The notes: generated from the letters alone by a model not told the origin. A stretch of 64,000 nt of DNA from Fimbriimonadales bacterium (GCA_026003075.1 BPGO01000003.1:259971-323970), one strand, 5' to 3'. Counted from the stretch's first letter, positions 46,001 through 63,371 are shown. Made by a program: numbers and translations.

Positions 46001-46171
46001 CGCCAACGCTGTATGCAACAATCTCTGATAGAATTCCTGTCGGAGAAGCGCGCGGGCTTCGTGGTAGAATGTGTTGATTCCGACTGTCGCTGCGCCGACG
46101 ATAGTCAGCGTCGCCGTCGCGCCCCACAAGATGGGATAACCCCACTTCTGCTGCCATTGCCGCATCGTCAA
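43025..46171 (-). CDS. Hybrid sensor histidine kinase (periplasmic sensor, GAF, PAS x2, HisKA, HATPase, REC)
   Basis: [49 protein letters not shown]. Confidence 0.95.
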
Positions 46172-46201
46172 GGGGTTATTCCATAAAATCCGATTCAGTT
46201 G

Positions 46202-47443: not shown

Positions 47444-47488
47444 CGGGTGAGAAGTATACCCCAATACCGCGTCTGCGCCGCTGCGGTG

Positions 47489-48943: not shown

Positions 48944-49078
48944 GATATTAACGCAGATAATTGTCGGCAGGTTCCTATGGTTTCCAGAATCCTATGACGG
49001 CTGGAATGCGTCGTGTGGCGTATTTCGGAGCCGCCGCGCAGGAATTTCACTCGTTATGCCCTATTATCTTCGCTGAAG

Positions 49079-50296
49079 ATGACACGCAATCGTTGGACGA
49101 TTCCCGTTGTGCTGGCAGTCACGGTGTTCGTGCATTACATCGACCGCAATAATCTCTCCATCGTGTTGCCCCAGATTGCCCGCGAGTTTGGTTGGAGCGA
49201 TCAGCAGATGGGTCAGTACGGGCAGTATCTCTTGGGGGCGTTTTACCTCACTTTTGGGGCGGCGCAGATTTTGCTCAGTCCTTGGGCGGAGCGGTTCGGC
49301 GTGAAGCGCAGCTTGATGCTTTCGATTGTGGGGTTCTCGGTCTGTACAATGCTTGTGTATCCGCTGGGGGGTTCTTTGGGGGCGTTGATTGGGTTGCGCT
49401 TACTGCTGGGCGCGGCGGAGAGCGTGCATATGCCGATGAACAGCGCGCTGGTGAGCCGTTGGTTCCCTCCGCATGAGCGCGGGCGAGCGAACTCGATTTA
49501 TGTGGCGGGGATCTTGTTGGCGTTGGCGAGTGCGCCGCTGTTGATTATTCCGCTTGCAGAACGGTTCGGCTGGCGGCCGACTTTTGCGCTGCTGGGGGCT
49601 GCAGGGCTGATGGTTAGCGTGCCGTTGGTGGCGACGCTGGTGAGCGATTCGCCACCTCGTGGCTTAGAAGGTCCAACGCACGCGAAGCATCGCCTGAACG
49701 AGACCCTCCAAGCCGTAGACCGTGCTACGCTGTGGCTCTATATCGCAGCGGGGATTTGTAATGCCTTCTGTGTGTTCGGGATATTGAACTGGCTGCCCAG
49801 TTATTTGAACCGCACTCGCGGCATCGAGTTCGGTGAGTTGAGCCTACCGTTGTCTGGGGTGTTTTTGTCGGGCATTCTGGGAATCTTTTTCTGGGCGTAC
49901 TGGGGGGATCGGAGCGGCAAGCGCACCCTGTTGGCAAGCGTGGGGCTGCTGCTTGCAGGGGTATGTGTGCTCCTAACAGCGATTGCGCCCGCGAACGGCT
50001 GGGCAATCGGCTTGCTGGCGTTGGGGGTCTTTTTGCAGAGCAGTTATAACGCTCAGGAGTTTGCCACATTGCAGGGCATGGTACCCTCCGAACGAGTGGG
50101 AGCGATTACGGGGCTTTATAACGGAGCAACGGTGCTGTTCGGTGGGGTGGGAGGGTCGCTCATTCCAGGCACGGTCGTGGCGCTTACAGGGAGTTTTCAG
50201 GCAGGGCTGCTCAGCGTCGCGGTGGGGGCGGGTATGGTGAGCCTGCTTATGGCACTCCTCACGCGGCGCCTCGCGTCACTGGCACGGGTGCTGTGA
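49079..50296 (+). CDS. MFS transporter (ACS-like)
   Basis: YIDRNNLSI, AERFGVKR, RWFPPHERGRAN, about 12 TM. Confidence 0.9.
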   Translation: MTRNRWTIPVVLAVTVFVHYIDRNNLSIVLPQIAREFGWSDQQMGQYGQYLLGAFYLTFGAAQILLSPWAERFGVKRSLMLSIVGFSVCTMLVYPLGGSLGALIGLRLLLGAAESVHMPMNSALVSRWFPPHERGRANSIYVAGILLALASAPLLIIPLAERFGWRPTFALLGAAGLMVSVPLVATLVSDSPPRGLEGPTHAKHRLNETLQAVDRATLWLYIAAGICNAFCVFGILNWLPSYLNRTRGIEFGELSLPLSGVFLSGILGIFFWAYWGDRSGKRTLLASVGLLLAGVCVLLTAIAPANGWAIGLLALGVFLQSSYNAQEFATLQGMVPSERVGAITGLYNGATVLFGGVGGSLIPGTVVALTGSFQAGLLSVAVGAGMVSLLMALLTRRLASLARVL

Positions 50297-50372
50297 GGCA
50301 TATCAGTACGCTTGGAAGATGGCTTTTGGCATAAGCAGGACTCTGCGCGCGGAACGCGAAACAGATTAGTGT

Positions 50373-50633
50373 ATGAAATCGGAGTCGCCGCTACGCGCCT
50401 ACTGGCGTGCGAACGTGCGCCTCATCGCGACGCTGCTTACGGTGTGGTTCGTCACGGCGTATGGCGTCAGCATCGTGTTCGCGCCGTGGCTGAACCAGTT
50501 TCGGCTGGGCAGCACGCCGCTGGGCTTTTGGCTCGCACAGCAGGGCAGTATCTATGTGTTCATTCTGCTCATCTGGATTTACGCCCGCGCAATGGACACG
50601 CTGGATCGACGGTATGAGGTGCATGAAGACTGA
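50373..50633 (+). CDS. Small membrane subunit of sodium:solute symporter (DUF4212-type)
   Basis: YWRANVRLI, PLGFWLAQQGSIYVF; directly upstream of the symporter. Confidence 0.88.
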   Translation: MKSESPLRAYWRANVRLIATLLTVWFVTAYGVSIVFAPWLNQFRLGSTPLGFWLAQQGSIYVFILLIWIYARAMDTLDRRYEVHED

Positions 50634-50671
50634 GCGGGTCGCTAACCGCGCCTATTTCACACGGACGCACG

Positions 50672-52414
50672 ATGACTGTTGAGCAGTGGACCTATCTGAT
50701 TGTAGGGCTGAGCTTCGCGCTCTATATCTATATCGGCTACGCCTCGCGCGTGCGCGATACGAAAGGGTTCTATGTGGCGGGGCGCGGCGTGCCGCCCATC
50801 GCCAACGGCGCAGCGACCGCCGCCGACTGGATGAGCGCGGCGAGTTTTATCTCGATGGCAGGGCTTATCGCCACGCTGGGCTACGACGGCGCCATCTATC
50901 TAATGGGGTGGACAGGCGGTTATGTGCTACTCGCGCTCTTGCTTGCCCCCTACTTGCGCAAGTATCGCAAGTTCACCGTGCCCGATTTCGTGGGCGACCG
51001 CTATGCGTCGCAGACCGCCCGTACGCTCGCCGCGCTGGCGACGATTTTTATCTCGCTCGTGTATGTGGCGGGGCAGATGCGCGGCGTGGGAATCGTGTTC
51101 AGCCGATTCTTAGCCATCGACATCGCTCAAGGCGTGCTGCTGGGCGTGGCAGTAACGGCGTTTTTTGCCATCTTGGGCGGGATGAAAGGCGTCACTTGGA
51201 CGCAAGCCGCGCAGTATACTATCCTGATTATCGCGTATCTCATCCCAGGGGTCGCGCTGGCGTACCTGCTGACGGGCAATCCCATCCCTCAACTTGCGTT
51301 CGCATTCAGCGACATCAGCGAACGGCTTAACCAGCTCCAGACCGATTTGGGCTTTAGCGAGTACACTGCGCCGTTTCAGAGTAAGTCGATGCTCGATGTG
51401 CTGGCGATTACGGGCGCGCTGATGGTTGGCACGGCGGGGCTACCGCATGTGATTATTCGGTTCTACACCACGCCTGATGTGCGCTCGGCGCGCTACTCGG
51501 CGTTCTGGGCGTTGCTGTTTATCGGGCTGCTGTATACCACCGCGCCTGCGCTGGCGATGTTCGCCCGCTACAACTTGATTAACACGCTGCACGGCAAGCC
51601 GATGGAGCAGGTGCGCCAGATTGACTGGGTCGCCAAGTGGGAGCAGACGGGGCTGCTAAAACTCGTGGATAAAAACGGCGACGGCGTCGTGCAGTTCGCG
51701 AAGGGCAAAGCGTTTTTGGAGAAAAGCGGCAAGCCCGACTTCAACGCGCCCGACAGGAGCAACCCCAACGAGGTGTATCTGGACAACGATATTATTGTCC
51801 TCTCTACGCCCGAAGTCGCGCAACTGGCGCCGTTCGTGATTGCGCTGTTGGCGGCTGGGGGGCTGGCGGCTGCGCTCTCGACGGCGTCGGGACTGCTGAT
51901 TGCGATGTCCAGCGCGGTGGCGCACGATTTGTATTATCGGGTGTTCAATCCGCGCGCCCCCGAACGGCTGCGTTTGCTGGTGGGACGGCTGGCGATGGTT
52001 CCTGCGCTGTTCGCCGCGGCGTATCTGGGGATTAATCCGCCCGGTTTTGTAGCGCAGGTGGTGGCGTTCGCGTTCGGCTTGGCGGCGTCGGGGCTGTTCC
52101 CGGCGATTCTGTCGGGGATTTTTGACCGCCGTATGAATGCTCAGGGCGCTATTGCAGGCATGGTGATTGGCTTGGGCTTCACGACCGTGATGATTGCGCT
52201 GATGCGGGCGCCCCAACTCTTCGGCGCGCCTGAACCGTATCTGAAGGACTTCTTCGGGATCAGTGCGGAAGGCATCGGTATCGTGGGTATGGCTCTGAAC
52301 CTGATAACCGCGCTCGTTGTCTCGCGCCTGACGCCGCCGCCCCCCGCACACATTCAGGAGATTGTGGACTCGATTCGCATCCCACGCGGCGCAGGCGAGG
52401 CGTTGGAGGAATAA
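50672..52414 (+). CDS. actP: Cation/acetate symporter, sodium:solute symporter family
   Basis: NGAATAADWMSAASF, GTAGLPHVIIRF, GGLAAALSTASGLL; ends RGAGEALEE. Confidence 0.85.
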   Translation: MTVEQWTYLIVGLSFALYIYIGYASRVRDTKGFYVAGRGVPPIANGAATAADWMSAASFISMAGLIATLGYDGAIYLMGWTGGYVLLALLLAPYLRKYRKFTVPDFVGDRYASQTARTLAALATIFISLVYVAGQMRGVGIVFSRFLAIDIAQGVLLGVAVTAFFAILGGMKGVTWTQAAQYTILIIAYLIPGVALAYLLTGNPIPQLAFAFSDISERLNQLQTDLGFSEYTAPFQSKSMLDVLAITGALMVGTAGLPHVIIRFYTTPDVRSARYSAFWALLFIGLLYTTAPALAMFARYNLINTLHGKPMEQVRQIDWVAKWEQTGLLKLVDKNGDGVVQFAKGKAFLEKSGKPDFNAPDRSNPNEVYLDNDIIVLSTPEVAQLAPFVIALLAAGGLAAALSTASGLLIAMSSAVAHDLYYRVFNPRAPERLRLLVGRLAMVPALFAAAYLGINPPGFVAQVVAFAFGLAASGLFPAILSGIFDRRMNAQGAIAGMVIGLGFTTVMIALMRAPQLFGAPEPYLKDFFGISAEGIGIVGMALNLITALVVSRLTPPPPAHIQEIVDSIRIPRGAGEALEE

Positions 52415-52537
52415 CAAAAGCAGGGATGCAAAACTTGCATCCCTGCCCAATAAACTCTACTGCCTTGGTGACATCATTACGCGCAAGTGGTCTGCCTGAA
52501 ACTCCACCCAGTACACATTTCCGTCGCGATCGACGTC
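52276..52537. repeat. 262-bp direct repeat, copy 1 (actP 3' end, terminator, propeller 3' end)
   Basis: Aligns without gaps to 61901..62162; diverged in the first ~75 bp, near-identical afterwards. Confidence 0.95.
52420..52446. terminator. Hairpin between convergent genes (identical copy at 62045..62071)
   Basis: GCAGGGATGCAA-AAC-TTGCATCCCTGC perfect 12-bp stem. Confidence 0.8.
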
Positions 52538-53794
52538 CCAAAGCGTGCCGCTGTCGATTCCAACTTCCAGCGCAATATCGCGCGCGCGTGAACGAACATA
52601 TTGTCCTTGGGCGTCAAACTCCACTATCCAAAAGCCGTCAATCAACGTCGTGCCTTCTGTCTGATTCGCGTCGGTGTACAGGTATCTTTGTCGCTGCTGC
52701 TGGCGTGTATAGATTTTATAGATACGTCCTTGCTGGTCAAACAGAATGGGTATCTGCAACTTCCAGTTTCGTGCGCCGTTGTAAGCGTCCCACACATTCG
52801 GCAGGTGTCGCGACACATCCAGCTGCCACTGGATGGAGCGCACGATGCTACCTTCTATGGTGAACCAACGGAAGGTAAGTTCAGGCACGACATCGAACAC
52901 TGAATCGTCAAAAACCCGCCGCTCGCGCTCATCGTAGAGGGTCCAGACACGGCGGTCTTCCTGTGGAAGCGACGACGCACTGTAATCCACAACAAGGACT
53001 TGCCCCGTATACCGATTGACAGCAAATGGGTCATAGGTTACCACCGGAAGCACATTCACAGCCCCATCAGGTGAGACCACCAATAGTCGGTCAGACATGG
53101 TAGTAACCTTTTCCTTGCCATCATCCAACGATTCACTTTCAAGAATCCTTTGCATCAGAAAGAAGCATCGACCTGTGTGATCCACTTCCCAAAGTAGGGC
53201 TGATCCAGGGTACAGGTTGTGGGGCGCATAAGCGTTGCGCACTGCCGCTTGAATACGCTCCGAGAGCGTCTTGTTGTAAGTTCCATCAGGGTTGTACACC
53301 TCTGCACCGTCATTCCCCTGCACATAGAGCTTGCCGTCTGCCCCCACGCGCATTCGCCCTGGATCGCCGCGTACAATCTCAATCGCGCGTACCCACCGCC
53401 CCTGACGGTCGTAGACCTGTACGTATGGGTTTGGGGGCGTGCCTGTGCCTATCCGGGAGCGACCTGACTCAGTCTCAGAGTTTGGCGGCAGCATCCGCAC
53501 CGAGTCGTCAAAGAAGAACATCTGCCCATCCCAGCTCACGCAGAAACTGCCAGGCCACGCGCTACTTGCAGTCAGCTCAGGCTCCCGCTCATTCGCTTCA
53601 CTGCCGTCAGATACAGGCGGAAACTTTTCGGGAATCACCATAAGCTGCCCCTGCGCCTTGCCATAGTTAATCTTGAACAATTCTACAGGCGCTCTCCCAT
53701 CTTGTGCTGATGATGGTTCCAGAGCAACCACCGCCAACAACAGAGGCGTTCCTGCGACAAACGCTAATTTCGCCCAAGATTTCATCTTGCTCAT
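52457..53794 (-). CDS. Secreted beta-propeller-like protein, paralogue 1 (candidate immunity protein)
   Basis: Signal peptide ending SSA-QD; family motifs FCVSWDGQ, QVYDRQGRWVR, PNVWD, DVDRDGNVYWVEF, MSPRQ. Confidence 0.85.
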   Translation of the reverse strand: MSKMKSWAKLAFVAGTPLLLAVVALEPSSAQDGRAPVELFKINYGKAQGQLMVIPEKFPPVSDGSEANEREPELTASSAWPGSFCVSWDGQMFFFDDSVRMLPPNSETESGRSRIGTGTPPNPYVQVYDRQGRWVRAIEIVRGDPGRMRVGADGKLYVQGNDGAEVYNPDGTYNKTLSERIQAAVRNAYAPHNLYPGSALLWEVDHTGRCFFLMQRILESESLDDGKEKVTTMSDRLLVVSPDGAVNVLPVVTYDPFAVNRYTGQVLVVDYSASSLPQEDRRVWTLYDERERRVFDDSVFDVVPELTFRWFTIEGSIVRSIQWQLDVSRHLPNVWDAYNGARNWKLQIPILFDQQGRIYKIYTRQQQRQRYLYTDANQTEGTTLIDGFWIVEFDAQGQYVRSRARDIALEVGIDSGTLWDVDRDGNVYWVEFQADHLRVMMSPRQ

Positions 53795-53806
53795 ACGACA
53801 TCCTCC

Positions 53807-54021
53807 TCATTCTGTTTCCCGAATTCTTCGAAAAGTGTAGCCACGTTGTTGCAGCGCGCGTAGCATGTCCATCCATTCCCGCATTACGCGCCTCGAACCC
53901 CGAACGCCCCCCAGAAGCGCAGCAACACCTCTTGCACAAGGTCTTCTGCGTCAGCAGTGCAGTGTGTCCACCGCATCGCGACAGAAAACATCCAGGTTCG
54001 CCACGCGGTCTCGGTAGGCAT
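53807..54021 (-). pseudogene. Internally deleted copy of the sigma/NlpC-P60 gene
   Basis: MPTETAWRTWMF...AEDLVQEVLLRFW matches the N-terminus of 57824..61225, joined out of frame to ...LQQRGYTFRRIRETE*, similar to the family C-termini. Confidence 0.8.
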
Positions 54022-54081
54022 CGATACCTCTCTTGCACTACAATATAATTTAGCACTCTCATGCGAGATTCCTGCTGTTTC

Positions 54082-54285
54082 CAGCCCGAATACTGGATCG
54101 TTGACCCCGACCGCGAGTACGCGGAGTTCTGGCAGTTGGATGAGACGGGCGCATATCGCGTGGCGTTCGCAGGCAGCGAGGGCGTTTATCGCAGTCGCGA
54201 ACTGAACGGCTTTTGGTTGCGCGTGGAGTGGCTGTGGCAGCAGCCTCCGATGGCGACGGTTCTCCAAGAGTGGGGACTGCACTGA
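54082..54285 (+). pseudogene. Uma2 family (PD-(D/E)XK) endonuclease, 3' fragment
   Basis: PEYWIVDP...GVYRSRELNGFWLRVEWLW; the N-terminal part is missing. Confidence 0.8.
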
Positions 54286-54308
54286 CGCTCCTAAGGTATA
54301 CTTTCGGC

Positions 54309-55457
54309 ATGTCGCGTCCTGTCGTGCGTTTGCAAGGAAGCATCCAGAGCCTACGCTTCAACGGGCAGCCCGCGACCTTGCCTAACTATGAATGGAGCGA
54401 TTTCAATATCAATGCAGCCCGTTCTCCATGCAAAGTGCGCTTAGCTGACGGAGCTGGTCTGGCAGTGTCCAAATGGACAGGTCCGAAGCGCACACGCACC
54501 TATCCACTTGCAAAAGTGTACGATACTTACTCGCACAGCGGTAAGATTGTCACTGTTATACCTATCATCAAGGATGAGGGACGCGGCGAGCGAGAAAACG
54601 ACACTAACCTTGACCGAGTGAACTTTATCACGCTGTCATGGATGAACCTGATGGGCGTGTATGTCATCCTCGCCTGGTATTGTGATGCTGATAAGAAAGA
54701 TAACTACCGAATCACGCGCCAGCGATTAGACAACGATTATGTGCGTCAGAAGATTGAAGAAGTAGCACGCTACAAAATGGACGCCCATCACTGGAACCAA
54801 GACCATTTCGTAAACGAGTTTGTTCCTCTCTACGAAAAAGCGTTGCATAGCTACGCATTAATCGCCCAAAAGTTGGGCGTCGCTATGCATTCCCAGCAAA
54901 GGCTACTTTCGTTTCTCGATGCCGTACGTTCTACGGATAATCCGTGCAAGTTAGATCTTGCAAAGTACGCCGAACTTTCTCTCTCGGCGTCCGAGCGCGC
55001 TGCATTACGAGAGACCGCTACTGAACATCGGATGGAGCGTGTCCAAGTAGGGAACGCCAAGGGCTTCTTTGAGATACATAACTACTTGGGCGGCGTGTAC
55101 TACCTGACTGCTGATGAGGTTATCCTGAATGGGGGCAATCAGGCTATCATACAGGAGAGCAAGAACACCACCAAGCGTCTCCTACCTTCACTGAGCGACA
55201 TCAAGGATGGTCTGTTCAAGCTTTTACTGTTCTCGCAGCTTCAAGAGTTACGACTTGGAGGGGCGTCGCTACAGTTTCGTACCCGACTGCGCTTAACGGG
55301 CGTCTTTAGGGGGAAACTGGAGCTACCTGCCGAACCTGAGGTGTTGAAATCGTTCACTACAGGCTGGGGAGAGCCTGTTCGCCGAAGTTTGCTCTGGCTG
55401 AATGAGGAACTGAGGCGACTTAGCATAGAGGGCTTCCTGGAGGGAACTCACTCATGA
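54309..55457 (+). CDS. Putative type II restriction endonuclease
   Basis: Overlaps (ATGA) a Dam-like methylase; TADE...QESK resembles a PD-(D/E)XK motif; specificity unknown. Confidence 0.65.
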   Translation: MSRPVVRLQGSIQSLRFNGQPATLPNYEWSDFNINAARSPCKVRLADGAGLAVSKWTGPKRTRTYPLAKVYDTYSHSGKIVTVIPIIKDEGRGERENDTNLDRVNFITLSWMNLMGVYVILAWYCDADKKDNYRITRQRLDNDYVRQKIEEVARYKMDAHHWNQDHFVNEFVPLYEKALHSYALIAQKLGVAMHSQQRLLSFLDAVRSTDNPCKLDLAKYAELSLSASERAALRETATEHRMERVQVGNAKGFFEIHNYLGGVYYLTADEVILNGGNQAIIQESKNTTKRLLPSLSDIKDGLFKLLLFSQLQELRLGGASLQFRTRLRLTGVFRGKLELPAEPEVLKSFTTGWGEPVRRSLLWLNEELRRLSIEGFLEGTHS

Positions 55458-56350
55458 CAAAGAGTCCACTTCGCTTTCCTGGCGGCAAGTCGCGGGCGAT
55501 TGGGCAGATTCTCCCTCTGATACCTGACTTTGACGAATATCGCGAGCCGATGGTCGGAGGCGGCTCGGTTCTGTTGGCGTTGCGCCAGCGTTCTCCGCAG
55601 CGCAGGTACTGGATGAACGACCTCAACTACGAACTCTATTGCTTCTGGAAGGTCGCTCAGGAGTGCGCCGACCGCCTCGCGGATACGCTCCATCGCCTGC
55701 ACAGCGAGACTCAGGATGGTAGGACGCTGTTCTATCGCCTGTTGGAACGCTATGGGCAGGGTGACGAGTTCGAGCGCGCCGTGCGCTTCTTTGTGTTGAA
55801 TCGCATCACTTTCTCAGGGACAGTAGACTCAGGCGGCTACTCGGAGCAGGCGTTTCGCGGACGGTTCACCCCTTCTGCGATTGAGCGCATCCGACAAGTT
55901 GCGCCTCTGTTGCAAGGTGTACGAATCACCCACGGGGATTACGAACCCGTATTGCGCGAAGCAGGCGATGAGGTGTTCATCTTTTTAGACCCGCCGTACT
56001 ACTCCGCGACGAACTCGCGTCTGTATGGCAAACGCGGCGAACTGCACCTAAACTTCGATCATCATCGTCTGGCGCGGGTGCTGAACCAGGTCGCGCATCG
56101 CTGGCTGCTTACTTATGACGACAGCCCCTTTATTCGCGAGCTGTACGCTGACTATGCGCAGGTACGATGGACGCTGCAGTACGGAATGAATAACTACAAG
56201 CAGCCGTGTGCGCGTGCTGGGCGTGAGTTATTCATCGCGAACTACCCGATTCAGGCGCGGGATTCCTCGCCGCAACTCGCTTTAGTTTTCGAGAGGAACT
56301 GGAGCCGTTTCTATTCCACTGCAGGCGCAGGCGAAGCGTTGGAGGAGTAG
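55454..56350 (+). CDS. DNA adenine methyltransferase (Dam/D12 family) with actP-like C-terminal tail
   Basis: SPLRFPGGKSR, EPMVGGGSV, NDL, FLDPPYY, ELFIANY; ends AGAGEALEE. Confidence 0.92.
   Translation: MTKSPLRFPGGKSRAIGQILPLIPDFDEYREPMVGGGSVLLALRQRSPQRRYWMNDLNYELYCFWKVAQECADRLADTLHRLHSETQDGRTLFYRLLERYGQGDEFERAVRFFVLNRITFSGTVDSGGYSEQAFRGRFTPSAIERIRQVAPLLQGVRITHGDYEPVLREAGDEVFIFLDPPYYSATNSRLYGKRGELHLNFDHHRLARVLNQVAHRWLLTYDDSPFIRELYADYAQVRWTLQYGMNNYKQPCARAGRELFIANYPIQARDSSPQLALVFERNWSRFYSTAGAGEALEE
56324..56350 (+). repeat. 27-bp copy of the actP 3' end
   Basis: ggcgcaggcgaagcgttggaggagtag versus 52388..52414 ggcgcaggcgaggcgttggaggaataa: 24/27 identical, differences synonymous. Confidence 0.85.
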
Positions 56351-56446
56351 GGTGTCCCCCAGCACGGGTGAGAACCGATTTTGGCTGCGGGTGGAGGGTT
56401 AGGGAACGCGATGGCGGTAAGGCGCGCTCACCCCATCGCGCCCTAA

Positions 56447-57808
56447 TCATCGCGGCGACATCTTGACCTCCAAGTGATCGGGATGGAACTCTATCCAGTA
56501 CACATTACCATGTTTATCCACATCCCACAGGTTAATCAGCCGCCCGACCAAGTTCTCCTGATGTCCATAGCTGCCTATCAGGCGCAGATTCGAAGCGCGA
56601 GGACGGACAAAACGCCCATCCGGCGTGAACTCAATAATCCAGAAGCCGTCCATCAGGGCTATGCCACGATCCGGGTCAGCAGGATCGTCCACCGTAATCC
56701 AATGGCGGCGTGTCGCGCTATAGACCCGATAGAGATGTCCCGCCTCATCCGTCGCAATCGCAAGGTGTCTCTCCAGGTTCACCGTGCCCACAAACCCATC
56801 CCACACATTCGGAACGCGGTCCGAAATGTCCAGATGCCAGACGAACTTCCTGACCACCTCGCCATCAGGACGAACACGCTTGTACGGATCCTTTCTAAAG
56901 AGCGTGATTGTATCGGTTTGGGGTTCCTCGTCAGAGCGCGAGTGGATCACAACAAACTGAACCTCCATCCGCCCCTCCGCTCGTACATCGTAATCGCCTA
57001 TGATAATCTCGCCCCGATAGCGGTCGATTCCCGCCTGATCATATGATGGGTAATCCAGCAGATTGGATCCCCCATCTGGATGGATGACCAGCAAGCGTCC
57101 TTCCAATTGCTTTGTTCCACCCTCTTCAGAAACGATTTGGCGAGCCAAGAAGTAGACCCTTCCGTTGCGATCCACCTCAAAAAACTCAGGTGTGGCGACT
57201 TCTGAGTCTAAGCGAAACTCTGTTGCCGCCCGTTTGATCGCCTCCCCCACTGCCTCCGTGCGCTGCTTGTCGTAGGTTCCGTCGGGGCGGTAGATGGCGA
57301 CACCACGCTTGGCATCGTCCACATAGAGCCAGCCTTGTTCGTCCACCCGAATTCGGGAGGGGAAGCCGTGTTTGAGTTTGATGGTGCGCACCCACTGTCC
57401 CTGACGATTGTAGACCTGCACCCACGGCGCCAGCTGGTCATCTTCTGTAGAGGTCTCTGCTTGAGGGGGTAGCTCGAGATTCTTGTCATAGTGGCGCAGA
57501 GGGTCGGCGATGTAAAACAGTTGCCCATCCCAGCTGACACAGAAGGTCGTGGGTCCACCGCCTGGTAGCGGTTCCCGCAACTCGTCGCCGTTCACCTCGC
57601 TGATCAGCCGTGAGCCAGGAAAGCGCACCCGCAGCTGGGTCGGCTTCTCACCGTAGGCAACTTTGAACAGGGAGACGGGCCGTGAGTCGGTTTGGATAGG
57701 AGGCGTTCGTCCAAAGCTCACGGCTGCAATGGTCAGCAAGCTAATCAGCACCAGCAACATCGGTGCGAGTTCACTCAGGGTTTCACTCTTTCGTAGGGTT
57801 TTTCGCAT
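56447..57808 (-). CDS. Secreted beta-propeller-like protein, paralogue 2
   Basis: Hydrophobic leader; FCVSWDGQLFY, QVYNRQGQWVR, GIDRYRGEII, PNVWD, DVDKHGNVYWIEF, MSPR. Confidence 0.85.
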   Translation of the reverse strand: MRKTLRKSETLSELAPMLLVLISLLTIAAVSFGRTPPIQTDSRPVSLFKVAYGEKPTQLRVRFPGSRLISEVNGDELREPLPGGGPTTFCVSWDGQLFYIADPLRHYDKNLELPPQAETSTEDDQLAPWVQVYNRQGQWVRTIKLKHGFPSRIRVDEQGWLYVDDAKRGVAIYRPDGTYDKQRTEAVGEAIKRAATEFRLDSEVATPEFFEVDRNGRVYFLARQIVSEEGGTKQLEGRLLVIHPDGGSNLLDYPSYDQAGIDRYRGEIIIGDYDVRAEGRMEVQFVVIHSRSDEEPQTDTITLFRKDPYKRVRPDGEVVRKFVWHLDISDRVPNVWDGFVGTVNLERHLAIATDEAGHLYRVYSATRRHWITVDDPADPDRGIALMDGFWIIEFTPDGRFVRPRASNLRLIGSYGHQENLVGRLINLWDVDKHGNVYWIEFHPDHLEVKMSPR

Positions 57809-57823
57809 GGCTCTCACCTCAAC

Positions 57824-60800
57824 TTAGTTTTGGAGTTGCTGCAATCGGCGCAGGCGATAGGTTCTTCCTGATTTGTCTTCGCGCTCCATCAGGTCGCCCA
57901 CCGTATCGGGACGCAAACGCGGGTTACCGCGTGTTGGTAGCGTTAGATGCTCCCCGTCGTTGATGGACACCCTATTATAGCGCCCCGAAGAGTCGATTAC
58001 GTCCACCCAAATATAATAGTCTGTTAGCTCGTTAGTTTTCTTATGTCTTATCTCGTCCCGCCGTGTAAACTCGACGATGAGGGCGACGTGGCTTCCTCTT
58101 TTGACGAGGATATCGCCTGGCTGGGCATTCAGGCGGGCTTGTTTATTGTCGTCCCAGCCGCGCGTGTAGGGATAACTGCCGCTGGCTAAATGTTCGGTTC
58201 CGATATCCCACCAGCGTCTGGTCTGTCGCCTGTCGTCCTGTCGCCTATCCCAACCCAATCCTGCCATCATCGCCGCTGCACTGATAAGTTTGGAGCAATC
58301 GATGCCAAATCCCTGATAGCCGCCCTCTGTGCTACTATCGCGCGTTGTAGGATGGACACGCCCTCCAAACCAGCAACCGCCCCACTCATACCTCACGCCG
58401 ATAAACGCCGTCGCCCACTCCACTACGCGCAAACGATAGTTGGCGTCGCTCCCTTCAAAACGCTCACGCACCGACAGACGCATTGCGGCAGTAGCCTCCT
58501 CGCCACGCCTGTCCAGTCTAGCAAATATTTTTCTTCTCCCACTTACATATTCGTCCCAGTCGCTCTTGGGAATTTTCCCGATCCCTGATACCAGATAGTA
58601 GTCCCAGTCTTGATGAGTCACGGCAACGGCGTACCGTTTTGTGCCACGTTCTGCCCTGAATGAGTAGGTGGGTAAGTTACCTTCAATCTGTCGAAGGGTG
58701 TACCAGTAGATTCGGTTGGGGCGTTCTCCTGTGTGATGATGAACCTCCAACCAGCGGAATTCGAGTTTTGGACCAGGCCAGACACCACATCGTGAAAGGT
58801 CACTAACAGAACGCGAGAAGAAATTATTATCTGGGCGCTGTTCTCCTCGTGACCAGGATACATTCCCAATATAAATACCAGAAGGCTGACGAGTGTATAC
58901 TATACCTTCAGGAAAGTCGATCTCACTATACCCACCGGTTATTACAGGTATCAATTCTATCTCGGTACCGACATAAGGATAGAGCAATTCCTGATTGCTA
59001 CTTGTTGCACCTCCACGAACTGCGTAGAAGATACCTACATTAAAGATTTGATACGTTGTGAACTTAGGTGCAACGCCAACTTTTACCTGCCTTGGATGGT
59101 TATCACGATAGTAGCCTGCAAAATTATCAGTGAAGCGGGGTATAAAGTGATAGGTTCCGAACCGAGTCATCTGGTTCTCAGGAATGCGCACAATAACTGT
59201 ATGTTCGCCTTCAGTAAAATATGCCGAGTCGATATTTTCAGAATGGATAGGATTGCGCACATCATTCCCAAAATGAACGTCGATGTGTCCACGCGACACC
59301 AAAGGGGTTCTTTGGAGATTAGAACGGGTGTTCTGCAGACGATACCTGATAGCAAAGTCAAAGGTGCGTTGTTGTGAGTTGTATCCCAAGGCAGTCAGGT
59401 TGAGCAGATCCATATGCACCCAACTTGCTGTGGTATCTACATTCACGAAGGAGCCTATAAAAGTTCCCAGACTCGCTGCAATTTGGTAGGGCACCTCGTT
59501 CTCTAATCCACTGTAGGGCGTGCGTTGTATCTGGACGAGGACGCGACCCGGCAGATTAGTATTATTCACTGAATGCGTCGTCGTACCTGTCTGCACCTGC
59601 AGAAGTAAATCGCCCTGCCAGTGGGGTGAAATCAGATCCAGCTCCACAGTCTGCGTTTGTTCTGTCTCAGAAAAGATGATCCAGTCGTCACTGGCTATAC
59701 GCACGAGAGGGTTGCTTACATTGAAACGGAACTCTTTTTTACAAACCCTACCTGCGCCATTTGTCGAATACTGGAGATAGGTCACTTCTGCAGTGTTTTC
59801 CCCGTTCGGCATCCCGATATCTGCTCTTCCAACATCGTTGTTCCAACCATAGGTGTAGTCAAGGGTTCCCTCTTTAGAGCCGCTTAGGCATCGGCAATAT
59901 TCACGGATCCCATAGGGGTCGTTGCATTCCCAGTAGTCCAAGTACAACCTGCGTTCTGGAAACGCCCCCTCGGGGCGATTATTTTTGAAGGTTACATAAC
60001 TGAAGTAAAGCGTGGGCGGTTCAGGCGAATCCGCAGCATAGAACTTGTACATATCCGCAACTGTGGTCGTGCATCTGAGCGATTCATGGTCATGTTCGAC
60101 AAAATAGTACTCCAACCCAACACGGAAGTCTGCGCATCTACCTGGTAGGAAGCAGCCTGGCTCGCCGATTCGGCAAAATGACCCTAATAAAGTTCCACCT
60201 ATTCCAAACTGCGGAAAGTTGAACCTCACTTGGAATGAACTTGGCTGCAGCGTCGATTGCAACGCAAAAATGAATTGCCCATTCTCGTTCGTAAGGGGAT
60301 GATTCCCGATCCAGTGGATCGTGCCCGCGGTTGTATGGATTTCCACAACAGCACCCGGCACTGGTTTGCCATCAACGTCCCGAATCGTTATCGCTCCCCA
60401 AATTAGGCTCTCGCCATCGGCAGGGACGCTCGGCATATGCAGTCCTGCTCTCACTTGATATCCATTCTCCAAAGCCTGCGTCAGTGTTCCATTCTGAAGA
60501 GCGGCGCTAAGCACTTCATTTGCTATCTGGTTCTCTCGGTCAGTCTGAGCAAAAGATAACTTAGGAGGGTACACTACTACACCCATCGTCAATAGGATTA
60601 CCACAGCGCGAACTTGTCTTGCAGCGAGCGAGGCAAGCACTCTATCCCCCCCCCCCGCGCTTTCATCCAGCGGAAAGACTGGTTGATCATCAACATCAGC
60701 ACCTCCGCCAATTAATTCGCTCTCTGCTCCCCAAAAGGTTGACAGCATAGTCTGTGCTTTTTGACGCATTCGGCAGAATTGGCATTTGACGGTTCCCACA

Positions 60801-61225
60801 CTGACATTTAGGCGGCGTGCAATCTCCTGATAGGTATATCCCTCCAGATAAAGATGGAGCATCTCCTGCTGTTGGGGAGAGAGCTGCTCCTCAAGCCTCT
60901 GTCGAAGCAGCTGCATTTCGGCGTGTTCTATAAGGCGGGTTTCAGAACCCTCGTGACCCTCGGGTAAAGGAGCATCCCAGTTTTCAAGCGTGATGTTTCG
61001 TTGCGTTGGTGCGCGACGGTTCCAATCAATGGTGCGAAGGCGAAGCCAGCGTCGGCAAACGGTTCGCGCCCACTGATGCGGGTGATATTCCCAAGGCAGG
61101 ACACCGAACACCTCCCAAAACTGCAGCAGGACCTCTTGCACGATGTCTTCTGCGTCTGCGGCGCAGCGCGTCAAGGGCTGGGCTACAAAAAGCATCCAAG
61201 CACGCCATTCAGTCTCAGTACACAT
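57824..61225 (-). CDS. ECF sigma-70-like domain joined through a G11 tract to signal peptide, invasin-type Ig domain and C-terminal NlpC/P60 domain
   Basis: AEDIVQEVLL (region 2); LSPQQQ...EGYTYQEIARRLNVSVGTVK (region 4); SFA-Q; VPADGES...RDVDGKPVPGAVVE...TNENGQ; GVRYEWGG...GIDCSKL...QPGDILV..GSHV. Confidence 0.85.
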   Translation of the reverse strand: MCTETEWRAWMLFVAQPLTRCAADAEDIVQEVLLQFWEVFGVLPWEYHPHQWARTVCRRWLRLRTIDWNRRAPTQRNITLENWDAPLPEGHEGSETRLIEHAEMQLLRQRLEEQLSPQQQEMLHLYLEGYTYQEIARRLNVSVGTVKCQFCRMRQKAQTMLSTFWGAESELIGGGADVDDQPVFPLDESAGGGDRVLASLAARQVRAVVILLTMGVVVYPPKLSFAQTDRENQIANEVLSAALQNGTLTQALENGYQVRAGLHMPSVPADGESLIWGAITIRDVDGKPVPGAVVEIHTTAGTIHWIGNHPLTNENGQFIFALQSTLQPSSFQVRFNFPQFGIGGTLLGSFCRIGEPGCFLPGRCADFRVGLEYYFVEHDHESLRCTTTVADMYKFYAADSPEPPTLYFSYVTFKNNRPEGAFPERRLYLDYWECNDPYGIREYCRCLSGSKEGTLDYTYGWNNDVGRADIGMPNGENTAEVTYLQYSTNGAGRVCKKEFRFNVSNPLVRIASDDWIIFSETEQTQTVELDLISPHWQGDLLLQVQTGTTTHSVNNTNLPGRVLVQIQRTPYSGLENEVPYQIAASLGTFIGSFVNVDTTASWVHMDLLNLTALGYNSQQRTFDFAIRYRLQNTRSNLQRTPLVSRGHIDVHFGNDVRNPIHSENIDSAYFTEGEHTVIVRIPENQMTRFGTYHFIPRFTDNFAGYYRDNHPRQVKVGVAPKFTTYQIFNVGIFYAVRGGATSSNQELLYPYVGTEIELIPVITGGYSEIDFPEGIVYTRQPSGIYIGNVSWSRGEQRPDNNFFSRSVSDLSRCGVWPGPKLEFRWLEVHHHTGERPNRIYWYTLRQIEGNLPTYSFRAERGTKRYAVAVTHQDWDYYLVSGIGKIPKSDWDEYVSGRRKIFARLDRRGEEATAAMRLSVRERFEGSDANYRLRVVEWATAFIGVRYEWGGCWFGGRVHPTTRDSSTEGGYQGFGIDCSKLISAAAMMAGLGWDRRQDDRRQTRRWWDIGTEHLASGSYPYTRGWDDNKQARLNAQPGDILVKRGSHVALIVEFTRRDEIRHKKTNELTDYYIWVDVIDSSGRYNRVSINDGEHLTLPTRGNPRLRPDTVGDLMEREDKSGRTYRLRRLQQLQN

Positions 61226-61349
61226 CTGTACCCCCTAAGTATTATACATTACTATTAGTTACACACAGACAAGATTCCTGCCATTTAGGTACCGAATTGG
61301 CGAGGCCATGCGGAACCTTGTTTGCCTGAGTCAGGTACACTTTGTCCTG

Positions 61350-62039
61350 ATGAGGACTCTCTGCCGTGCGCCCGAAGTGTGGCGCGACATGGGACTGACC
61401 GACGCCGAGTACCAACGCATTGCGGACCTGATGGGACGCGAGCCGACCGATGTGGAACTGGGCATGTTCGCCGTGATGTGGTCGGAACACTGCGGTTATA
61501 AATACTCGCGCCCGGTATTGAGCCTCTTTAAAAGGTATCGCGAGTCGCTGGAGGGCGCAGGCTTTGAGAACGCAGGCGTGATACCGCTGGATGAGAATCT
61601 GGGCGTCGCGTTCAAGGTGGAGAGCCATAACCATCCTTCGGCGGTGGAACCTCATCAGGGGGCGGCGACGGGCGTGGGGGGCATCATCCGCGATATCTTC
61701 ACGATGGGCGCCCGCCCTATCGCGATTTTGGACTCGCTGCGCTTTGGTCCCTTGAACGAGCCGCGCAACCGCTACCTGTTTGAGCATGTGGTGGAGGGCA
61801 TCTCCAGCTACGGCAACTGCATCGGCGTGCCGACGGTTGCGGGCGAGGTCTATTTCCATCCGTGTTATTCGGGCAACCCGTTGGTGAACGCGATGGCGGT
61901 CGGCGTCGTGGGGATGGCGCTGAACCTGCTGACGGCGATTATCGTCTCGCGCCTGACGCCCCCACCTCCTACGCATATTCAGGAGATTGTGGACTCGATT
62001 CGCATTCCGCGCGGCGCAGGCGAGGCGTTGGAGGAATAA
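61350..62039 (+). pseudogene. purL: purL 5' fragment fused in frame to an actP 3' end
   Basis: [46 protein letters not shown], then [20 protein letters not shown]...GAGEALEE. Confidence 0.92.
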
Positions 62040-62162
62040 CAAAAGCAGGGATGCAAAACTTGCATCCCTGCCCAATAAACTCTACTGCCTTGGTGACATC
62101 ATTACGCGCAAGTGGTCTGCCTGAAACTCCACCCAGTACACATTTCCGTCGCGATCGACGTC
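61901..62162. repeat. 262-bp direct repeat, copy 2
   Basis: Matches 52276..52537. Confidence 0.95.
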
Positions 62163-63368
62163 GCACAATCTGTTGGCGAAATCGGTTTCCAGCGGCAGAT
62201 TGCGCGCACGCACACTTCTGAAATGACCCTGTGCGTCGAACTCCACGATTGCGAAGCCCCGATCTACGGTAAGCCATTCTCTCGCAGAAGCGGTCGGAAT
62301 AGCATGCCGCTCGATACGGGACGCCAGGTAAATCCGATATAGACGACCTTCGTTGTCCGTCATCACATTATCTGGCAACCAGCCGCGATAGGTGAATACA
62401 TACGCATCGAAAAGATTAGGCGCGTGCTGCGCGATGTCTACTTGCCACGAGAAGGTTCTCAAGACCTCACCGCTTGAATCGACGACCTTGTAAGGGAGAG
62501 ATGTATAAAGGTTGCACTGTTCCCTTTTGATTTCACGCTGTTCGCCAACGTCGTACAAGACGGTTTCATGCTGCCGAATGTATCCCTCTGTGAGAGGACG
62601 CTGGTAGTTAGCGGTGATGATTTCCCCACGATACCGATCAATACCCAGTGGGTTGAAAATTTCTATCGGGACAAGACGAGTCTGACCGTCTGGCGAAACG
62701 ATTAGCAGATTGTTTAGTCCTGACTCACCTTCTGGCACAGCCTCGCGACTCAAGAACACCCAGAAATAGATGCGTCCAAGACTATCTACCTCGCGAAAGA
62801 TGACCTTTTCCAAGTTATACTGGACACGCGCCGCACGTACCGAGCGTTGTAGCTGTTCAGACAAGGTCTTGTTGTAGCTCCCGTCAGAGTTGTAGACCTC
62901 CACCCCTTCATCGCCGCCAACATACAGGCGTCCGTCCCGATCCACCCGAAAATAGGAAGGGCGTCCCTTAATTATCTTGATCGTTCTCACCCATTCTCCC
63001 CTTCGGTTGTACACCTGTATCCACGGGGGCGATTCTTCCTTGGCTTCACGGACAGGAGTGTTCTCGTCGTCAAATTTAGGTATGGCGCGCATTGAGTCGC
63101 AAAAGTAAAAGAGTTGTCCATCCCAACTGACGCAGAAGTTGTCGACGCCCCCATACGGAGGGTCTTCCTCACCCTCCTCAGCGTCATCGCGTGAACAAAA
63201 CAGCACCATGCGCAGCTGCTGAGGATGGTCGCCAAACTTCACCTTGAACAGTTCCTGCTCTCGCGGTTGGGCAAGAGCGAGCCTTCCCAACGGCAGAACA
63301 GTGAGTAGAGCGAGCAGTATCGCTGTAAGCAGTCGCCAATCCCTTAGTGTTCGTCGATTATGTCGCAT
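62082..63368 (-). CDS. Secreted beta-propeller-like protein, paralogue 3
   Basis: Signal peptide ending ALA-QP; FCVSWDGQLFY, QVYNRRGEWVR, GIDRYRGEII, DVDRDGNVYWVEF, MSPRQ. Confidence 0.85.
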   Translation of the reverse strand: MRHNRRTLRDWRLLTAILLALLTVLPLGRLALAQPREQELFKVKFGDHPQQLRMVLFCSRDDAEEGEEDPPYGGVDNFCVSWDGQLFYFCDSMRAIPKFDDENTPVREAKEESPPWIQVYNRRGEWVRTIKIIKGRPSYFRVDRDGRLYVGGDEGVEVYNSDGSYNKTLSEQLQRSVRAARVQYNLEKVIFREVDSLGRIYFWVFLSREAVPEGESGLNNLLIVSPDGQTRLVPIEIFNPLGIDRYRGEIITANYQRPLTEGYIRQHETVLYDVGEQREIKREQCNLYTSLPYKVVDSSGEVLRTFSWQVDIAQHAPNLFDAYVFTYRGWLPDNVMTDNEGRLYRIYLASRIERHAIPTASAREWLTVDRGFAIVEFDAQGHFRSVRARNLPLETDFANRLCDVDRDGNVYWVEFQADHLRVMMSPRQ

Positions 63369-63371
63369 AGC

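Follow-up and report, generated by a model that had tools for sequence, protein, structure and literature searches.

Repeated actP ends in the window

The stretch of DNA analysed here (64,000 nucleotides, hereafter the window) belongs to a metagenome-assembled genome of a Fimbriimonadales bacterium from a hot spring, 84% complete. The listing of open reading frames reveals three on the plus strand that end in the same residues, GAGEALEE, followed by the stop codon: an SSF symporter of 580 aa, called actP (50672–52414), a D12-class methylase of 298 aa (55454–56350) and a 5′ fragment of purL of 243 aa (61308–62039). Each faces a convergent gene on the minus strand (52457–53794, 56447–57817 and 62082–63368, respectively), as the first-pass annotation had reported. 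The features of the locus are as follows:

50373–50633, plus strand: DUF4212 small membrane protein, symporter partner (Pfam PF13937, E 1.3e-32)
50672–52414, plus strand: intact actP-like sodium:solute symporter, allele A1 (Pfam SSF, E 1.3e-54)
52275–52414, plus strand: actP 3′ end, recurring as a 139/140-nt tail at 61900–62039 and beyond the window
52385–52537, no strand: 153-nt patch, 100% identical to 62010–62162 (identity strings)
52420–52446, no strand: hairpin terminator with a 12-bp stem between the convergent actP and propA
52457–53794, minus strand: propA, secreted propeller-like protein, cassette type A
53884–54021, minus strand: remnant of an ECF sigma N-terminus, 45 codons
54061–54285, plus strand: C-terminal remnant of the Uma2 family, about 70 codons (Pfam Uma2, E 8e-4)
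54306–55457, plus strand: type II restriction endonuclease (PADLOC REase_II, E 1.1e-56)
55454–56350, plus strand: D12-class (Dam-type) N6-adenine methylase (Pfam PF02086, E 1.1e-36)
56324–56364, plus strand: right-hand copy of a 41-bp target, B-type allele, joint J3
56404–56418, plus strand: 15-mer identical to purL 61886–61900; the matched purL segment stops exactly at the J1 breakpoint
56447–57817, minus strand: propB, propeller-like protein, cassette type B
57824–61225, minus strand: bigB, 1133 aa (Pfam)
60646–60656, minus strand: poly-G tract, G11 in the window, at the junction of sigma and membrane domains
61308–61899, plus strand: purL 5′ fragment, codons 1–197, with its own start (Pfam FGAR-AT linker and AIRS)
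61900–62039, plus strand: actP tail, allele Tc, 139 nt and the remainder of the stop
62082–63368, minus strand: propC, propeller-like protein, cassette type C
63372–64000, minus strand: 3′ part of bigC (gene of 976 aa), which runs off the window to C3:326272

Past the window the array runs on through the rest of contig C3 and apparently continues into contig C8. In the whole assembly there are seven actP 3′-end pieces (one intact gene, two pieces of codons ~58–580, two tails of 139 nt and two of 26 nt), four of the GAGEALEE-type tails lying outside the window, and five purL 5′ ends, one intact and four fragments. Allele A1 is the sole full-length actP and forms the conserved left flank of the array; purL also has a single intact copy. 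DNA comparison of 52275–52540 with 61900–62165 gives 92% identity over 266 nt, running through the 139-nt actP tail and the terminator hairpin into the last part of the convergent gene. The similarity of the tails is beyond chance: in BLAST the 140-nt copies match at E 5e-40 and the 26-mers at E 3.7e-5 to 8e-4. The hairpin between actP and propA folds at −23.1 kcal/mol (z −3.86), and none of 200 shuffled sequences folds equally well.

The units are built around propeller-like genes and large genes called here ‘big’. The designation of the former as propellers is tentative: an Atlas feature and structural neighbours among the six-bladed NHL, SBBP and SGL propellers (TM 0.50–0.58) point to this fold, but the Pfam search of these proteins returned no domain match. 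The three proteins are 36–41% identical, with pS 0.73 and pN 0.40 between propA and propC, the divergence of the cassette genes thus being ancient; propB has a 98% identical copy at C3:329613–330977. The bigB protein has ECF sigma regions 2 and 4, a transmembrane segment and an Ig-like domain; its C-terminal domain contains a Cys/His motif like that of NlpC/P60, with weak profile scores (NLPC_P60 E 0.025, ELLD 0.005) and with D976, C977 and S978 invariant. The gene is a mosaic, ~99.9% identical to bigD in the sigma part and 100% identical to bigC over 59437–60637, with a unique C-terminal part. The poly-G tract, whose length varies in contigs of other runs, coincides with the left edge of a 7.3-kb repeat, two copies of which (99.89% identical, 8 differences) are the sole near-identical pair among the units. 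In cassette A the rest of the ‘big’ gene is deleted, the joint lying at about 53897–53900, and 53897–54028 matches 61101–61232 at 73%. Besides conserved flanks and a conserved block of 2.8 kb, the array contains patches, of 153 nt and of ~1.2 kb, in which otherwise diverged units are 100% identical. The shorter one covers the tail end, the terminator and the last 27 codons of propA and propC; rightward of it similarity ends abruptly, leftward it continues at ~85%, and the patch marks a recent exchange between units.

Joints and alleles of actP and purL

Three types of joint occur in the array, two between purL and actP (J1 and J2) and one between the methylase and actP (J3). In J1 (61899/61900) codon ~197 of purL is fused to the last 139 nt of actP next to an imperfect microhomology of 8/10 (GGCGT.GTG), whereas J2 fuses codon ~375 of purL out of frame to codon ~58 of actP, with a 3-nt overlap (ATC) and one extra C. 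Both are illegitimate joints at short or imperfect microhomology, as the first-pass annotation had proposed, and its junctions at ~56324 and ~61901 could be placed at 56324 and 61900. The former, J3, fuses the methylase to the last 26 nt of actP; these (56324–56349, 24/26 with actP) are all that the two genes have in common. The breakpoints in actP thus fall at three places (codons ~58, ~534 and ~572), with mirror-image scars at codons ~197 and ~375 of purL. The three reading frames share their ending only because two chimeric frames happen to read in frame into a scar.

J1 is bridged in contigs of two independent runs (X2 record 14, 61484–62039; X4 record 23, 61464–62039), both from a study other than that of the probable source run, and J3 is independently present in the genome of the closest relative, G006. 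J2 is internal to contig C3, flanked on either side by unique sequence, and can also be rebuilt from the end of C3, five missing nucleotides and the start of C8; the exact J2 40-mer has no match in the JGI metagenome contigs, its support being limited to its own assembly. The exact J1 patterns likewise gave no match in the JGI contigs and the GTDB species genomes. A 15-mer is common to the intergenic hairpin of type B (56404–56418) and the purL breakpoint of J1; its two matches in the window compare with ~0.01 expected by chance, and the account preferred below leaves it unexplained.

The purL fragments differ from one another at 0–3 sites. The one at 61308–61899 is 96% identical to the intact purL, and the fragments differ from it at 21 of 591 sites (0, 2 and 19 at the three codon positions; binomial P 8e-8) or, in a longer comparison, at 44 of 1065 sites (2, 6 and 36; P 5e-11), with pS 0.14 and pN 0.004–0.010. 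For actP, alleles A1 and A2 differ at 26 of 1564 sites (3, 1 and 21; P 3e-7), A1 and the tail Tc at 21 of 141 (6, 0 and 15; pS 0.378, pN 0.065; P 4e-4 for at least 15 of 21 at third positions). The differences between scars and intact genes have the pattern of purifying selection, which suggests that the tails diverged while functional and bears out the first reading of them as separate alleles, different mainly at synonymous or conservative positions, rather than a fresh duplication. Since pS is higher for the Tc tail (0.38) than for the purL fragments, the two flanks have had different histories. A tree of purL places the fragments together with the intact gene and the species representative G006 as an unresolved trio within a clade supported at 100/99. 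Mostly third-position divergence of the scars, together with the ancient divergence of the cassette genes, argues for units from different lineages; this bias, the purL tree and the pS between propA and propC all point to added DNA that is foreign to the host lineage.

The restriction-modification cassette and the locus in relatives

The endonuclease gene (54306–55457), whose frame is open from 54213 so that its start is uncertain, is 95% identical to its copy in G006. The methylase is also matched by PADLOC MTase_II (E 2.1e-130), the profile covering residues 1–276 of 298, and its last 9 codons and stop derive from the duplicated actP end. A target of 41 bp, made up of the final 26 nt of actP, stop codon included, and the 15 nt downstream, borders this cassette: 56324–56364 is identical to the uninterrupted junction of actP (A2) and propB′ at C3:329487–329527 (G000), and in G006 a perfect 41/41 direct repeat surrounds the corresponding cassette with an insert of ~2.17 kb between the repeats. 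In the window only the right copy abuts the cassette. The methylase joint is therefore one edge of a long target duplication around the restriction-modification (R-M) genes, an event distinct from the purL–actP joints.

This arrangement resembles the ‘insertion with long target duplication’ described for R-M genes by Furuta, Abe & Kobayashi 2010 (PMC2853133), where homologues of both R and M, an insert of <20 kb with no mobility gene, and a repeat of >30 bp with an uninterrupted target for comparison are the defining points, and where in Haemophilus repeats of 46 bp overlap the 3′ end of a gene by 15 bp or 2 bp. Here too a type II R and M pair (both found by PADLOC) lies in an insert of ~2.2 kb with no other mobile element or mobility gene, C3 and C8 being without a recombinase, and a direct repeat of >30 bp overlaps a gene 3′ end and aligns with an uninterrupted target. 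Unlike those cases, the left repeat copy in the window is not adjacent to the cassette: propA, the sigma stub and a longer Uma2 stub intervene, so that the simple form is seen only in G006. The insert also carries a stub of the neighbouring Uma2 gene, which suggests that the cassette was cut out of a homologous locus.

Comparison with relatives reveals wide variation downstream of actP, as expected by the first-pass annotation. In one genome (G014) actP, Uma2 and purL are adjacent, an empty slot with an intact Uma2 orthologue of 209 aa, to which the remnant at 54061–54285 shows DNA similarity. In G006 the order is actP-[Uma2′-REase-MTase]-prop-big, and among 12 congeners only 3 pairs have common sequence downstream of actP. 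Contigs of the runs X2, X4 and X6 carry propA, leave the window sequence at the same loose end (53900) and have neither propB nor the R-M cassette, so that natural populations are polymorphic for the units. The genes actP and purL are the conserved flanks of a hypervariable interval.

Origin of the array

We favour, with a probability of roughly 0.6, the interpretation that the tails are recombination scars of alternative cassettes from different lineages, stacked between actP and purL. The interval would be a hypervariable slot holding alternative modules (ECF sigma, large membrane protein, propeller-like protein) and defence genes, and its versions, from lineages as distant as different species of the genus, would have been joined head to tail, the 5′ part of purL or the end of the R-M cassette being fused each time to a 3′ part of actP through an illegitimate exchange where microhomology was short or imperfect. 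To retain a whole cassette, with its promoter and its terminator, a unit must be broken within the actP and purL flanks. The most likely route would be a foreign fragment, linear or circularised, anchored through a single homologous crossover within a conserved flank and closed by illegitimate joining, that is homology-facilitated illegitimate recombination or Campbell-type integration, with actP, purL or the conserved half of a ‘big’ gene as candidate anchors. The R-M cassette would have inserted 15 nt behind the actP stop, making the 41-bp duplication, and later homologous exchange between tails, purL fragments and conserved ‘big’ halves would have copied and rearranged the units and in part evened out their differences. 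The joints with their positions, the copy numbers, the divergence of the alleles, the variation in relatives and the independent support for J1 and J3 are observed; the order of these events, the uptake route and the anchoring flank are inferred. The earlier proposal that cassettes from related strains were stacked agrees in part with this interpretation; the methylase belongs to the separate R-M event shared with G006. As for uptake, natural transformation would be consistent with homologues of comEA, comEC and dprA in this genome, which also occur in 10–11 of 14 control genomes; the two competence genes attributed to the window reduce to the comEA-like HHH_3 gene at 31404–31580, the ComEC ‘Competence’ domain being on contig C5.

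The array is a known kind of genome rearrangement, here large and unusually elaborate. Homology-facilitated illegitimate recombination (de Vries & Wackernagel 2002, Prudhomme et al. 2002, Meier & Wackernagel 2003, cited in PMC5361080; for this and Campbell-type integration see also PMC3240628) is the likeness we propose: one homologous anchor in a flank (in the array a candidate), one illegitimate joint at a microhomology of a few bases, foreign DNA added without an element-encoded recombinase, and alternative gene sets stacked beside dead remnants of the genes at the flanks. It differs in that the array, known from sequence inference alone, would require several rounds and internal duplications, and in that the purL stubs are one allele. 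The same mechanism has been proposed for the orphan arrays of T6SS effector-immunity genes in Vibrio cholerae, formed by sequential displacement (Kirchberger et al. 2017, PMC5361080), where Rhs C-terminal displacement (Jackson et al. 2009) is also cited. There as here, alternative modules lie serially downstream of a conserved region, each unit retains a conserved piece, complex arrays then move and reshuffle by homologous recombination, and a conserved 5′ half with a variable 3′ part, as in the ‘big’ genes, is followed by a variable small gene. The conserved pieces of the present array are however unrelated housekeeping flanks, actP and purL, outside the variable gene. A toxin-immunity pairing of ‘big’ and the propeller-like protein would be conjectural, the weak NlpC/P60 signal and the gene order being its possible traces.

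Against this interpretation, the four purL fragments are a single allele, whereas stepwise addition from different donors predicts different ones; this would agree with a small number of illegitimate events and subsequent duplication within the array, or with an origin inside a single genome. The stronger divergence of the Tc tail relative to the purL fragments also speaks against it. The origin inside a single genome, which we regard as unlikely though the strongest competitor, supposes that the purL–actP joints arose when sister chromosomes exchanged unequally at microhomology, that homologous unequal crossovers expanded the array, and that ordinary homologous recombination with foreign DNA then overwrote slots and intact flanks part by part. 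Tandem duplication at short junctions, followed by amplification, occurs in bacteria. A two-step model of duplication and then expansion has been described (PMC2656507), and the 5′ part of a downstream gene fused to the 3′ part of an upstream gene, as in J1 and J2, is the classic head-to-tail joint. The near-identity of the 7.3-kb repeat, the identical patches, which indicate ongoing exchange between units, and a second, young tandem duplication of 6,516 nt in the genome (C6:36623–43138 = 43139–49654, 99.985%) agree with such a history. Duplicates begin identical, however, yet propA and propC are separated by the pS of 0.73 and the units are not copies of one another, as they would be after simple tandem duplication; contigs of X2 and X4 already hold J1 beside different neighbours. 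Moreover, the scars look like foreign alleles diverged under purifying selection, so this history needs several extra replacements per unit.

That the assembler threaded strain variants of one locus in series is very improbable. In its favour, the genome comes from a metagenome assembly, alternative continuations occur in the probable source run (loose ends at 56129, 56527, 57985 and 60036), C3 terminates inside a repeat, and the 8 differences between the 7.3-kb copies could be those of two strains; but a purL–actP joint cannot arise from strain variation alone, and the independent support for J1 and J3 and the unique surroundings of J2 mean that an artefact could affect how many units there are and in which order, but not the scars. 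Unit order beyond the joints, the second 7.3-kb copy and the link between C3 and C8 depend on the assembly, in which a strain switch at a 1.6-kb identical actP stretch is possible.

Islands are known to integrate at tRNA genes, carrying a replacement gene end, and the first-pass annotation had regarded the actP 3′ end as a repeated capture site. Indeed, 3′-end direct repeats flank accessory DNA, the last 26 nt are common to all copies, and the repeat around the G006 cassette is perfect. Neither the window nor the main ORFs of the units scanned revealed an integrase, transposase or other recombinase; in the genome, 84% complete, the search gave two tyrosine-recombinase matches, on C6 and C1 and none on C3 or C8, and no serine recombinase, and the sole mobile-element trace is a truncated IS5-family copy (C8:1570–2115). 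Differing actP breakpoints and the lack of a recombinase on these contigs argue against a specific capture site, and the mirror scars in purL do so as well; an integration that displaces the former 3′ end is at odds with an intact actP that has retained its own end and is followed by the additional tails. Site-specific insertion by an integrase-type element at the actP 3′ end is therefore scarcely credible, given three breakpoints with no common core and joints that include purL fragments.

Beyond the stacking of cassettes from different lineages, we consider it doubtful, although worth stating, that the array is more than debris and serves the cell as a library of alternative modules for surface signalling or for action on the cell wall. 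If so, each unit would be a complete operon with its own promoter, encoding an ECF sigma, a large membrane protein and a propeller partner; the G9/G11/G12 tract would switch the sigma between a free form and one tethered to the membrane protein; and gene conversion between units, of which the identical patches and the mosaic bigB may be traces, would reshuffle the variable, NlpC/P60-like ends. The cell could then vary or pool its modules in the manner of antigenic-variation loci or orphan effector-immunity arrays.

Shared gene ends and the array around the window

Analysis of the open reading frames in the window reveals that three forward-strand genes end in the same peptide, GAGEALEE*, each facing a convergent gene. 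This had been claimed in the first-pass annotation and is borne out by the listing and by DNA matches.

Genes of the window concerned
50672-52414, +, actP, SSF-family symporter with a DUF4212 partner (Pfam)
52457-53794, -, gene convergent with actP (propA)
55454-56350, +, D12-class methylase, ends GAGEALEE*
56447-57817, -, gene convergent with the methylase (propB)
61308-62039, +, 243-aa chimeric ORF, first ~197 codons of purL followed by 46 actP codons
62082-63368, -, gene convergent with the chimeric ORF (propC)

The match between 52275-52540 and 61900-62165 amounts to 92% over 266 nt, and the part of the tail shared by the methylase is 26 nt long (56324-56349). A Pfam search of the three convergent genes gave no match; from their Atlas neighbours alone (features and predicted structure), which are NHL/SBBP/SGL six-bladed propellers with TM 0.50-0.58, they are putative propeller proteins.

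A search of the whole metagenome-assembled genome yielded seven copies of the actP 3' end and five of the purL 5' end, with a single full-length actP (C3:310642-312384, inside the window, C3 being its contig) and a single full-length purL (contig C8:13076-15361). The order of units was obtained from ORF maps of C3:322600-342559 and C8:1-16000 together with self-comparison, and both order and number rest on a metagenome assembly.

Order of units in the array (big, ECF sigma/membrane-protein gene; tail26 and tail139, last 26 and 139 nt of actP; numbers in parentheses, codons retained)
First stretch: actP - propA - sigma stub - Uma2 stub - REase - MTase, then joint
Second stretch: tail26 - propB - bigB - purL(1-197), then joint
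Third stretch: tail139 - propC - bigC - purL(1-375), then joint
Fourth stretch: actP(58-580) - propB' - 490-aa gene - bigD - purL(1-197), then joint
Fifth stretch: tail139 - propC' - bigC' - purL(1-...), where C3 ends
Start of C8: actP(58-580) - truncated IS5-family copy - REase remnant - HerA/NurA/DruA genes - MTase remnant, then joint
Last stretch, on C8: tail26 - propB'' (broken) - 490-aa gene - bigD' - intact purL

The two contigs apparently meet at a J2-type joint, which can be pieced together from the terminus of C3, five bases that are missing and the beginning of C8. Self-comparison reveals that W60646-67967 (window numbering continued past 64000) is repeated at 99.89% over 7.3 kb, and the following 1,570 nt at 100%. 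Elsewhere, the end of contig C17 (12655-25754) and the start of contig C9 (1-13100) share 13.1 kb at 99.93%, probably an assembly overlap or a repeat left unmerged.

Joints of the array
J1, 61899/61900 and again C3:336492/3, purL codon ~197 to the last 139 nt of actP
J2, C3:327942/3, purL codon ~375 to actP codon ~58
J3, 56323/56324 and again C8:6588/9, methylase to the last 26 nt of actP

J1 and J3 are thus placed where junctions had been proposed, near 61901 and 56324. J1 adjoins an imperfect microhomology (8/10), and J2, which is out of frame, shows a 3-nt overlap and one extra base. A 15-mer, GAACGCGATGGCGGT, occurs twice in the window (~0.01 extra matches expected by chance): at 56404-56418, in the hairpin that separates propB from the actP end of B type, and at 61886-61900, where, within purL, it stops precisely at the J1 breakpoint. 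Fourteen of its 15 nt are kept in the intergenic copy of the closest relative, G006, and the pair may go back to an older joint or to a microhomology that served earlier.

Divergence of the gene fragments and of the cassettes

The tails had been regarded as separate alleles differing mainly at synonymous sites and not as a fresh duplication, and the counts agree. The tail allele at 61900-62039 (Tc) differs from the intact actP tail at 21/141 sites (6, 0 and 15 at the three codon positions; pS 0.38, pN 0.065). Four purL fragments differ among themselves at 0-3 sites and from intact purL at 21/591 sites, 19 of them third codon positions; for the longest comparable fragment the count is 44/1065, with 36 at third positions (pS 0.14, pN 0.004-0.010). 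Likewise, 21 of the 26 differences (in 1564 sites) between the long truncated actP (A2) and the intact allele (A1) fall at third positions. These biases, with binomial P from 4e-4 to 5e-11, suggest that the stubs diverged as working genes in other lineages. Sixteen of the 26 actP differences are packed in 115 nt (window 50860-50974), 15 of these 16 spaced three bases apart; over the remainder of the 1.56 kb the two copies hardly differ. The cluster resembles a short tract brought in by recombination.

A purL tree places the fragment allele with the intact copy and with the species representative G006, as a trio without internal order, in a 100/99 clade. The tree of the tails against actP orthologues was built (137 nt) but left 8 of 12 inner forks open, so that the tail comparison rests on pairwise counts: 117/137 for Tc-A1 and 134/137 for A1-A2. 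Tc reaches 87.8% with the best of 12 sampled congeners, as against 85% with the resident actP, and is no closer to the congeners. Divergence of the cassette genes is ancient (pS 0.73 and pN 0.40 for propA/propC; pS 0.38 for bigB/bigC), and the units represent distinct pre-existing cassette types and not duplicates.

Identity between units is nevertheless patchy. The segments 52385-52537 and 62010-62162 are identical over 153 nt, with 85% identity on the left side and no alignment on the right, and bigB and bigC share ~1.2 kb (59437-60637) at 100% identity, with ~87-98% in the sigma part and ~40-57% in the 3' part, which makes bigB a mosaic. Exchange between units appears to be ongoing.

A G11 or G12 tract is present at each sigma/big junction; together these make up five of the 17 G/C runs of at least 10 nt in the 2.6-Mb genome.

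Poly-G tracts at sigma/membrane-protein junctions
Window 60646-60656; C3:326209-326220; C3:335238-335249; C3:340832-340843; C8:12413-12424; L046 2993

Tract length decides if sigma and the membrane protein are joined in one frame. With G11 in bigB or G12 in bigD, sigma is in frame with the transmembrane and extracellular protein; in bigC a TAG directly follows the G12. Length varies in natural contigs, by +1 in the hot-spring metagenome run X1 and by -2 in runs X2 and X4. G017, from another genus, has a G12 just 5' of its homologue; in the relative G002 sigma is a separate 191-aa gene and there is no tract. By strand slippage, the tract may act as a phase switch that leaves ECF sigma free or tethers it. 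An NlpC/P60 signal in the big genes is weak (E 0.025 and 0.071). The C-terminal domain of bigB has a D-C-S motif invariant in 11 homologues and gave no match among PDB sequences at E up to 1. Sigma/membrane-protein/propeller modules with length-variable poly-G may be a family worth its own study.

The restriction-modification cassette and the locus in relatives

The order in G006 is actP - [Uma2 stub - REase - MTase] - propeller - big, its actP being 97% identical at the protein level. The cassette lies between perfect 41-nt direct repeats that each comprise the final 26 nt of actP, stop included, and the 15 nt beyond it; an uninterrupted copy of the same 41 nt is found at the actP(A2)-propB' junction of our genome. 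According to PMC2853133, restriction-modification (R-M) insertion with long target duplication is recognized by R and M genes, an insert <20 kb, a repeat >30 bp and no other mobile element, and the G006-type cassette agrees with each of these. The methylase joint is best read as such a duplication around an R-M cassette. The methylase profile match stops at residue 276/298, indicating that the enzyme core is whole and that the ORF merely extends through the duplicated target as far as the stop of actP. The arrangement in the window is not the simple form: between the left repeat copy and the cassette stand propA, a sigma stub of 45 codons and a longer Uma2 stub.

In C8 (1570-6588) the cassette is gutted. 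The REase gene is reduced to 63 nt and the methylase gene to 220 nt, with HerA-like (DUF87), NurA and DruA (Druantia) genes between them, which suggests that the slot collects defence genes too. As to mobile elements, the array shows only 546 nt, adjoining the actP stop in C8, of an ~870-nt element that is present at C1:24284-25150 and in nine or more further places (C1, C4, C6, C9; copies 87-95% identical). Its two overlapping ORFs presumably encode, by their appearance, an IS5-family transposase made by frameshifting; the element has no match in Rfam.

Among relatives, actP was found in 14 of 16 further congeneric genomes and in none of 14 more distant ones, purL in 24/30, and a propeller homologue in only 5/30. 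In G014, actP, an intact 209-aa Uma2 gene and purL lie side by side; here the slot is empty, which accounts for the Uma2 stub of the window. In the complete genome G012, actP and purL are 589 kb apart. Comparison of the region downstream of actP, as the first-pass annotation had proposed, found it variable: in 12 congeners similarity ends at the stop codon, except in the pairs G010/G012, G009/G016 and G014/G015. The sigma/big/propeller module of G002 and G017 resides at other loci, beside plsY or dapF/thuA. The sequences point to a locus of conserved flanks and variable middle. Contig breaks near actP or purL in related metagenome-assembled genomes were considered as a sign of similar arrays and dropped, these assemblies being very fragmented.

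Origin of the array

We favour, with a probability of about 0.6, addition of foreign fragments by homologous crossover and illegitimate joining, together with target duplication around the R-M cassette and later exchange. A fragment from another lineage would be joined by one homologous crossover in a conserved part and one illegitimate joint, either as homology-facilitated illegitimate recombination (HFIR) or by circularisation and Campbell-type integration; the R-M cassette would be added with its 41-bp target duplication, and homologous exchange among the repeated parts would follow. A join inside the promoter-to-terminator span would break the cassette, which would be why units start in actP and end in purL.

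The main rival, tandem duplication in situ followed by allele replacement, is a good deal less probable. It would agree with the single allele common to all four purL stubs and with another young 6.5-kb tandem duplication in this genome (C6:36623-49654; 6,516 nt in perfect register, 99.985%); the third-position bias of the stubs, on the other hand, speaks for addition from other lineages.

That the joints are assembly artefacts is improbable. Logan contigs were aligned to window 50000-64000, and the stretch is present in hot-spring metagenome runs, of which the best match, X1, may be the source sample. Contigs of X2 (61484-62039) and X4 (61464-62039), from a different study than X1, bridge J1 with one differing letter each, which provides independent sequence for the junction near 61901; the one near 56324 finds its independent counterpart in the J3 of G006. 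X2, X4 and a further run, X6, cover propA and then depart from the window at 53900 with the same loose end, leaving the R-M cassette, propB and the bigB-specific part uncovered. This suggests that units are polymorphic in nature and that J1 is older than the R-M/propB segment of our genome. Junction k-mer scans demand exact matches and give weak negatives: a J1 28-mer and a J2 40-mer had no match in JGI metagenome contigs, nor had a J1 40-mer in GTDB species genomes, and J2 is without support outside the assembly.

Integrase-mediated integration is the least credible reading, actP being broken at three different places with mirror-image stubs in purL, unlike a site-specific attachment site, and the only two tyrosine-recombinase matches of the genome lying on contigs C6 and C1, away from the array; the proposal of the actP 3' end as a repeated capture site is thereby not supported. 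The reported lack of an integrase in the window stands; no serine recombinase was found in this 84%-complete genome.

Addition by crossover and illegitimate joining has precedents. In PMC5361080, HFIR-built arrays are proposed for Vibrio T6SS effector-immunity clusters and Rhs loci, which the present pattern resembles, and the R-M cassette resembles the long target duplications described in PMC2853133. The case adds no new mechanism; it is a large example, well documented, of a kind already known. The purL-actP and methylase-actP chimeric ORFs are scars and not new genes, and annotators should expect such ORFs at these places. The locus records the building of a large accessory region in a bacterium in which no mobile-element machinery is visible there. 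Entire alternative cassettes, of which some come from species-level relatives, follow one another between two housekeeping genes, and stubs of these genes log each event. It offers a testable example of between-lineage recombination in hot-spring Fimbriimonadales.
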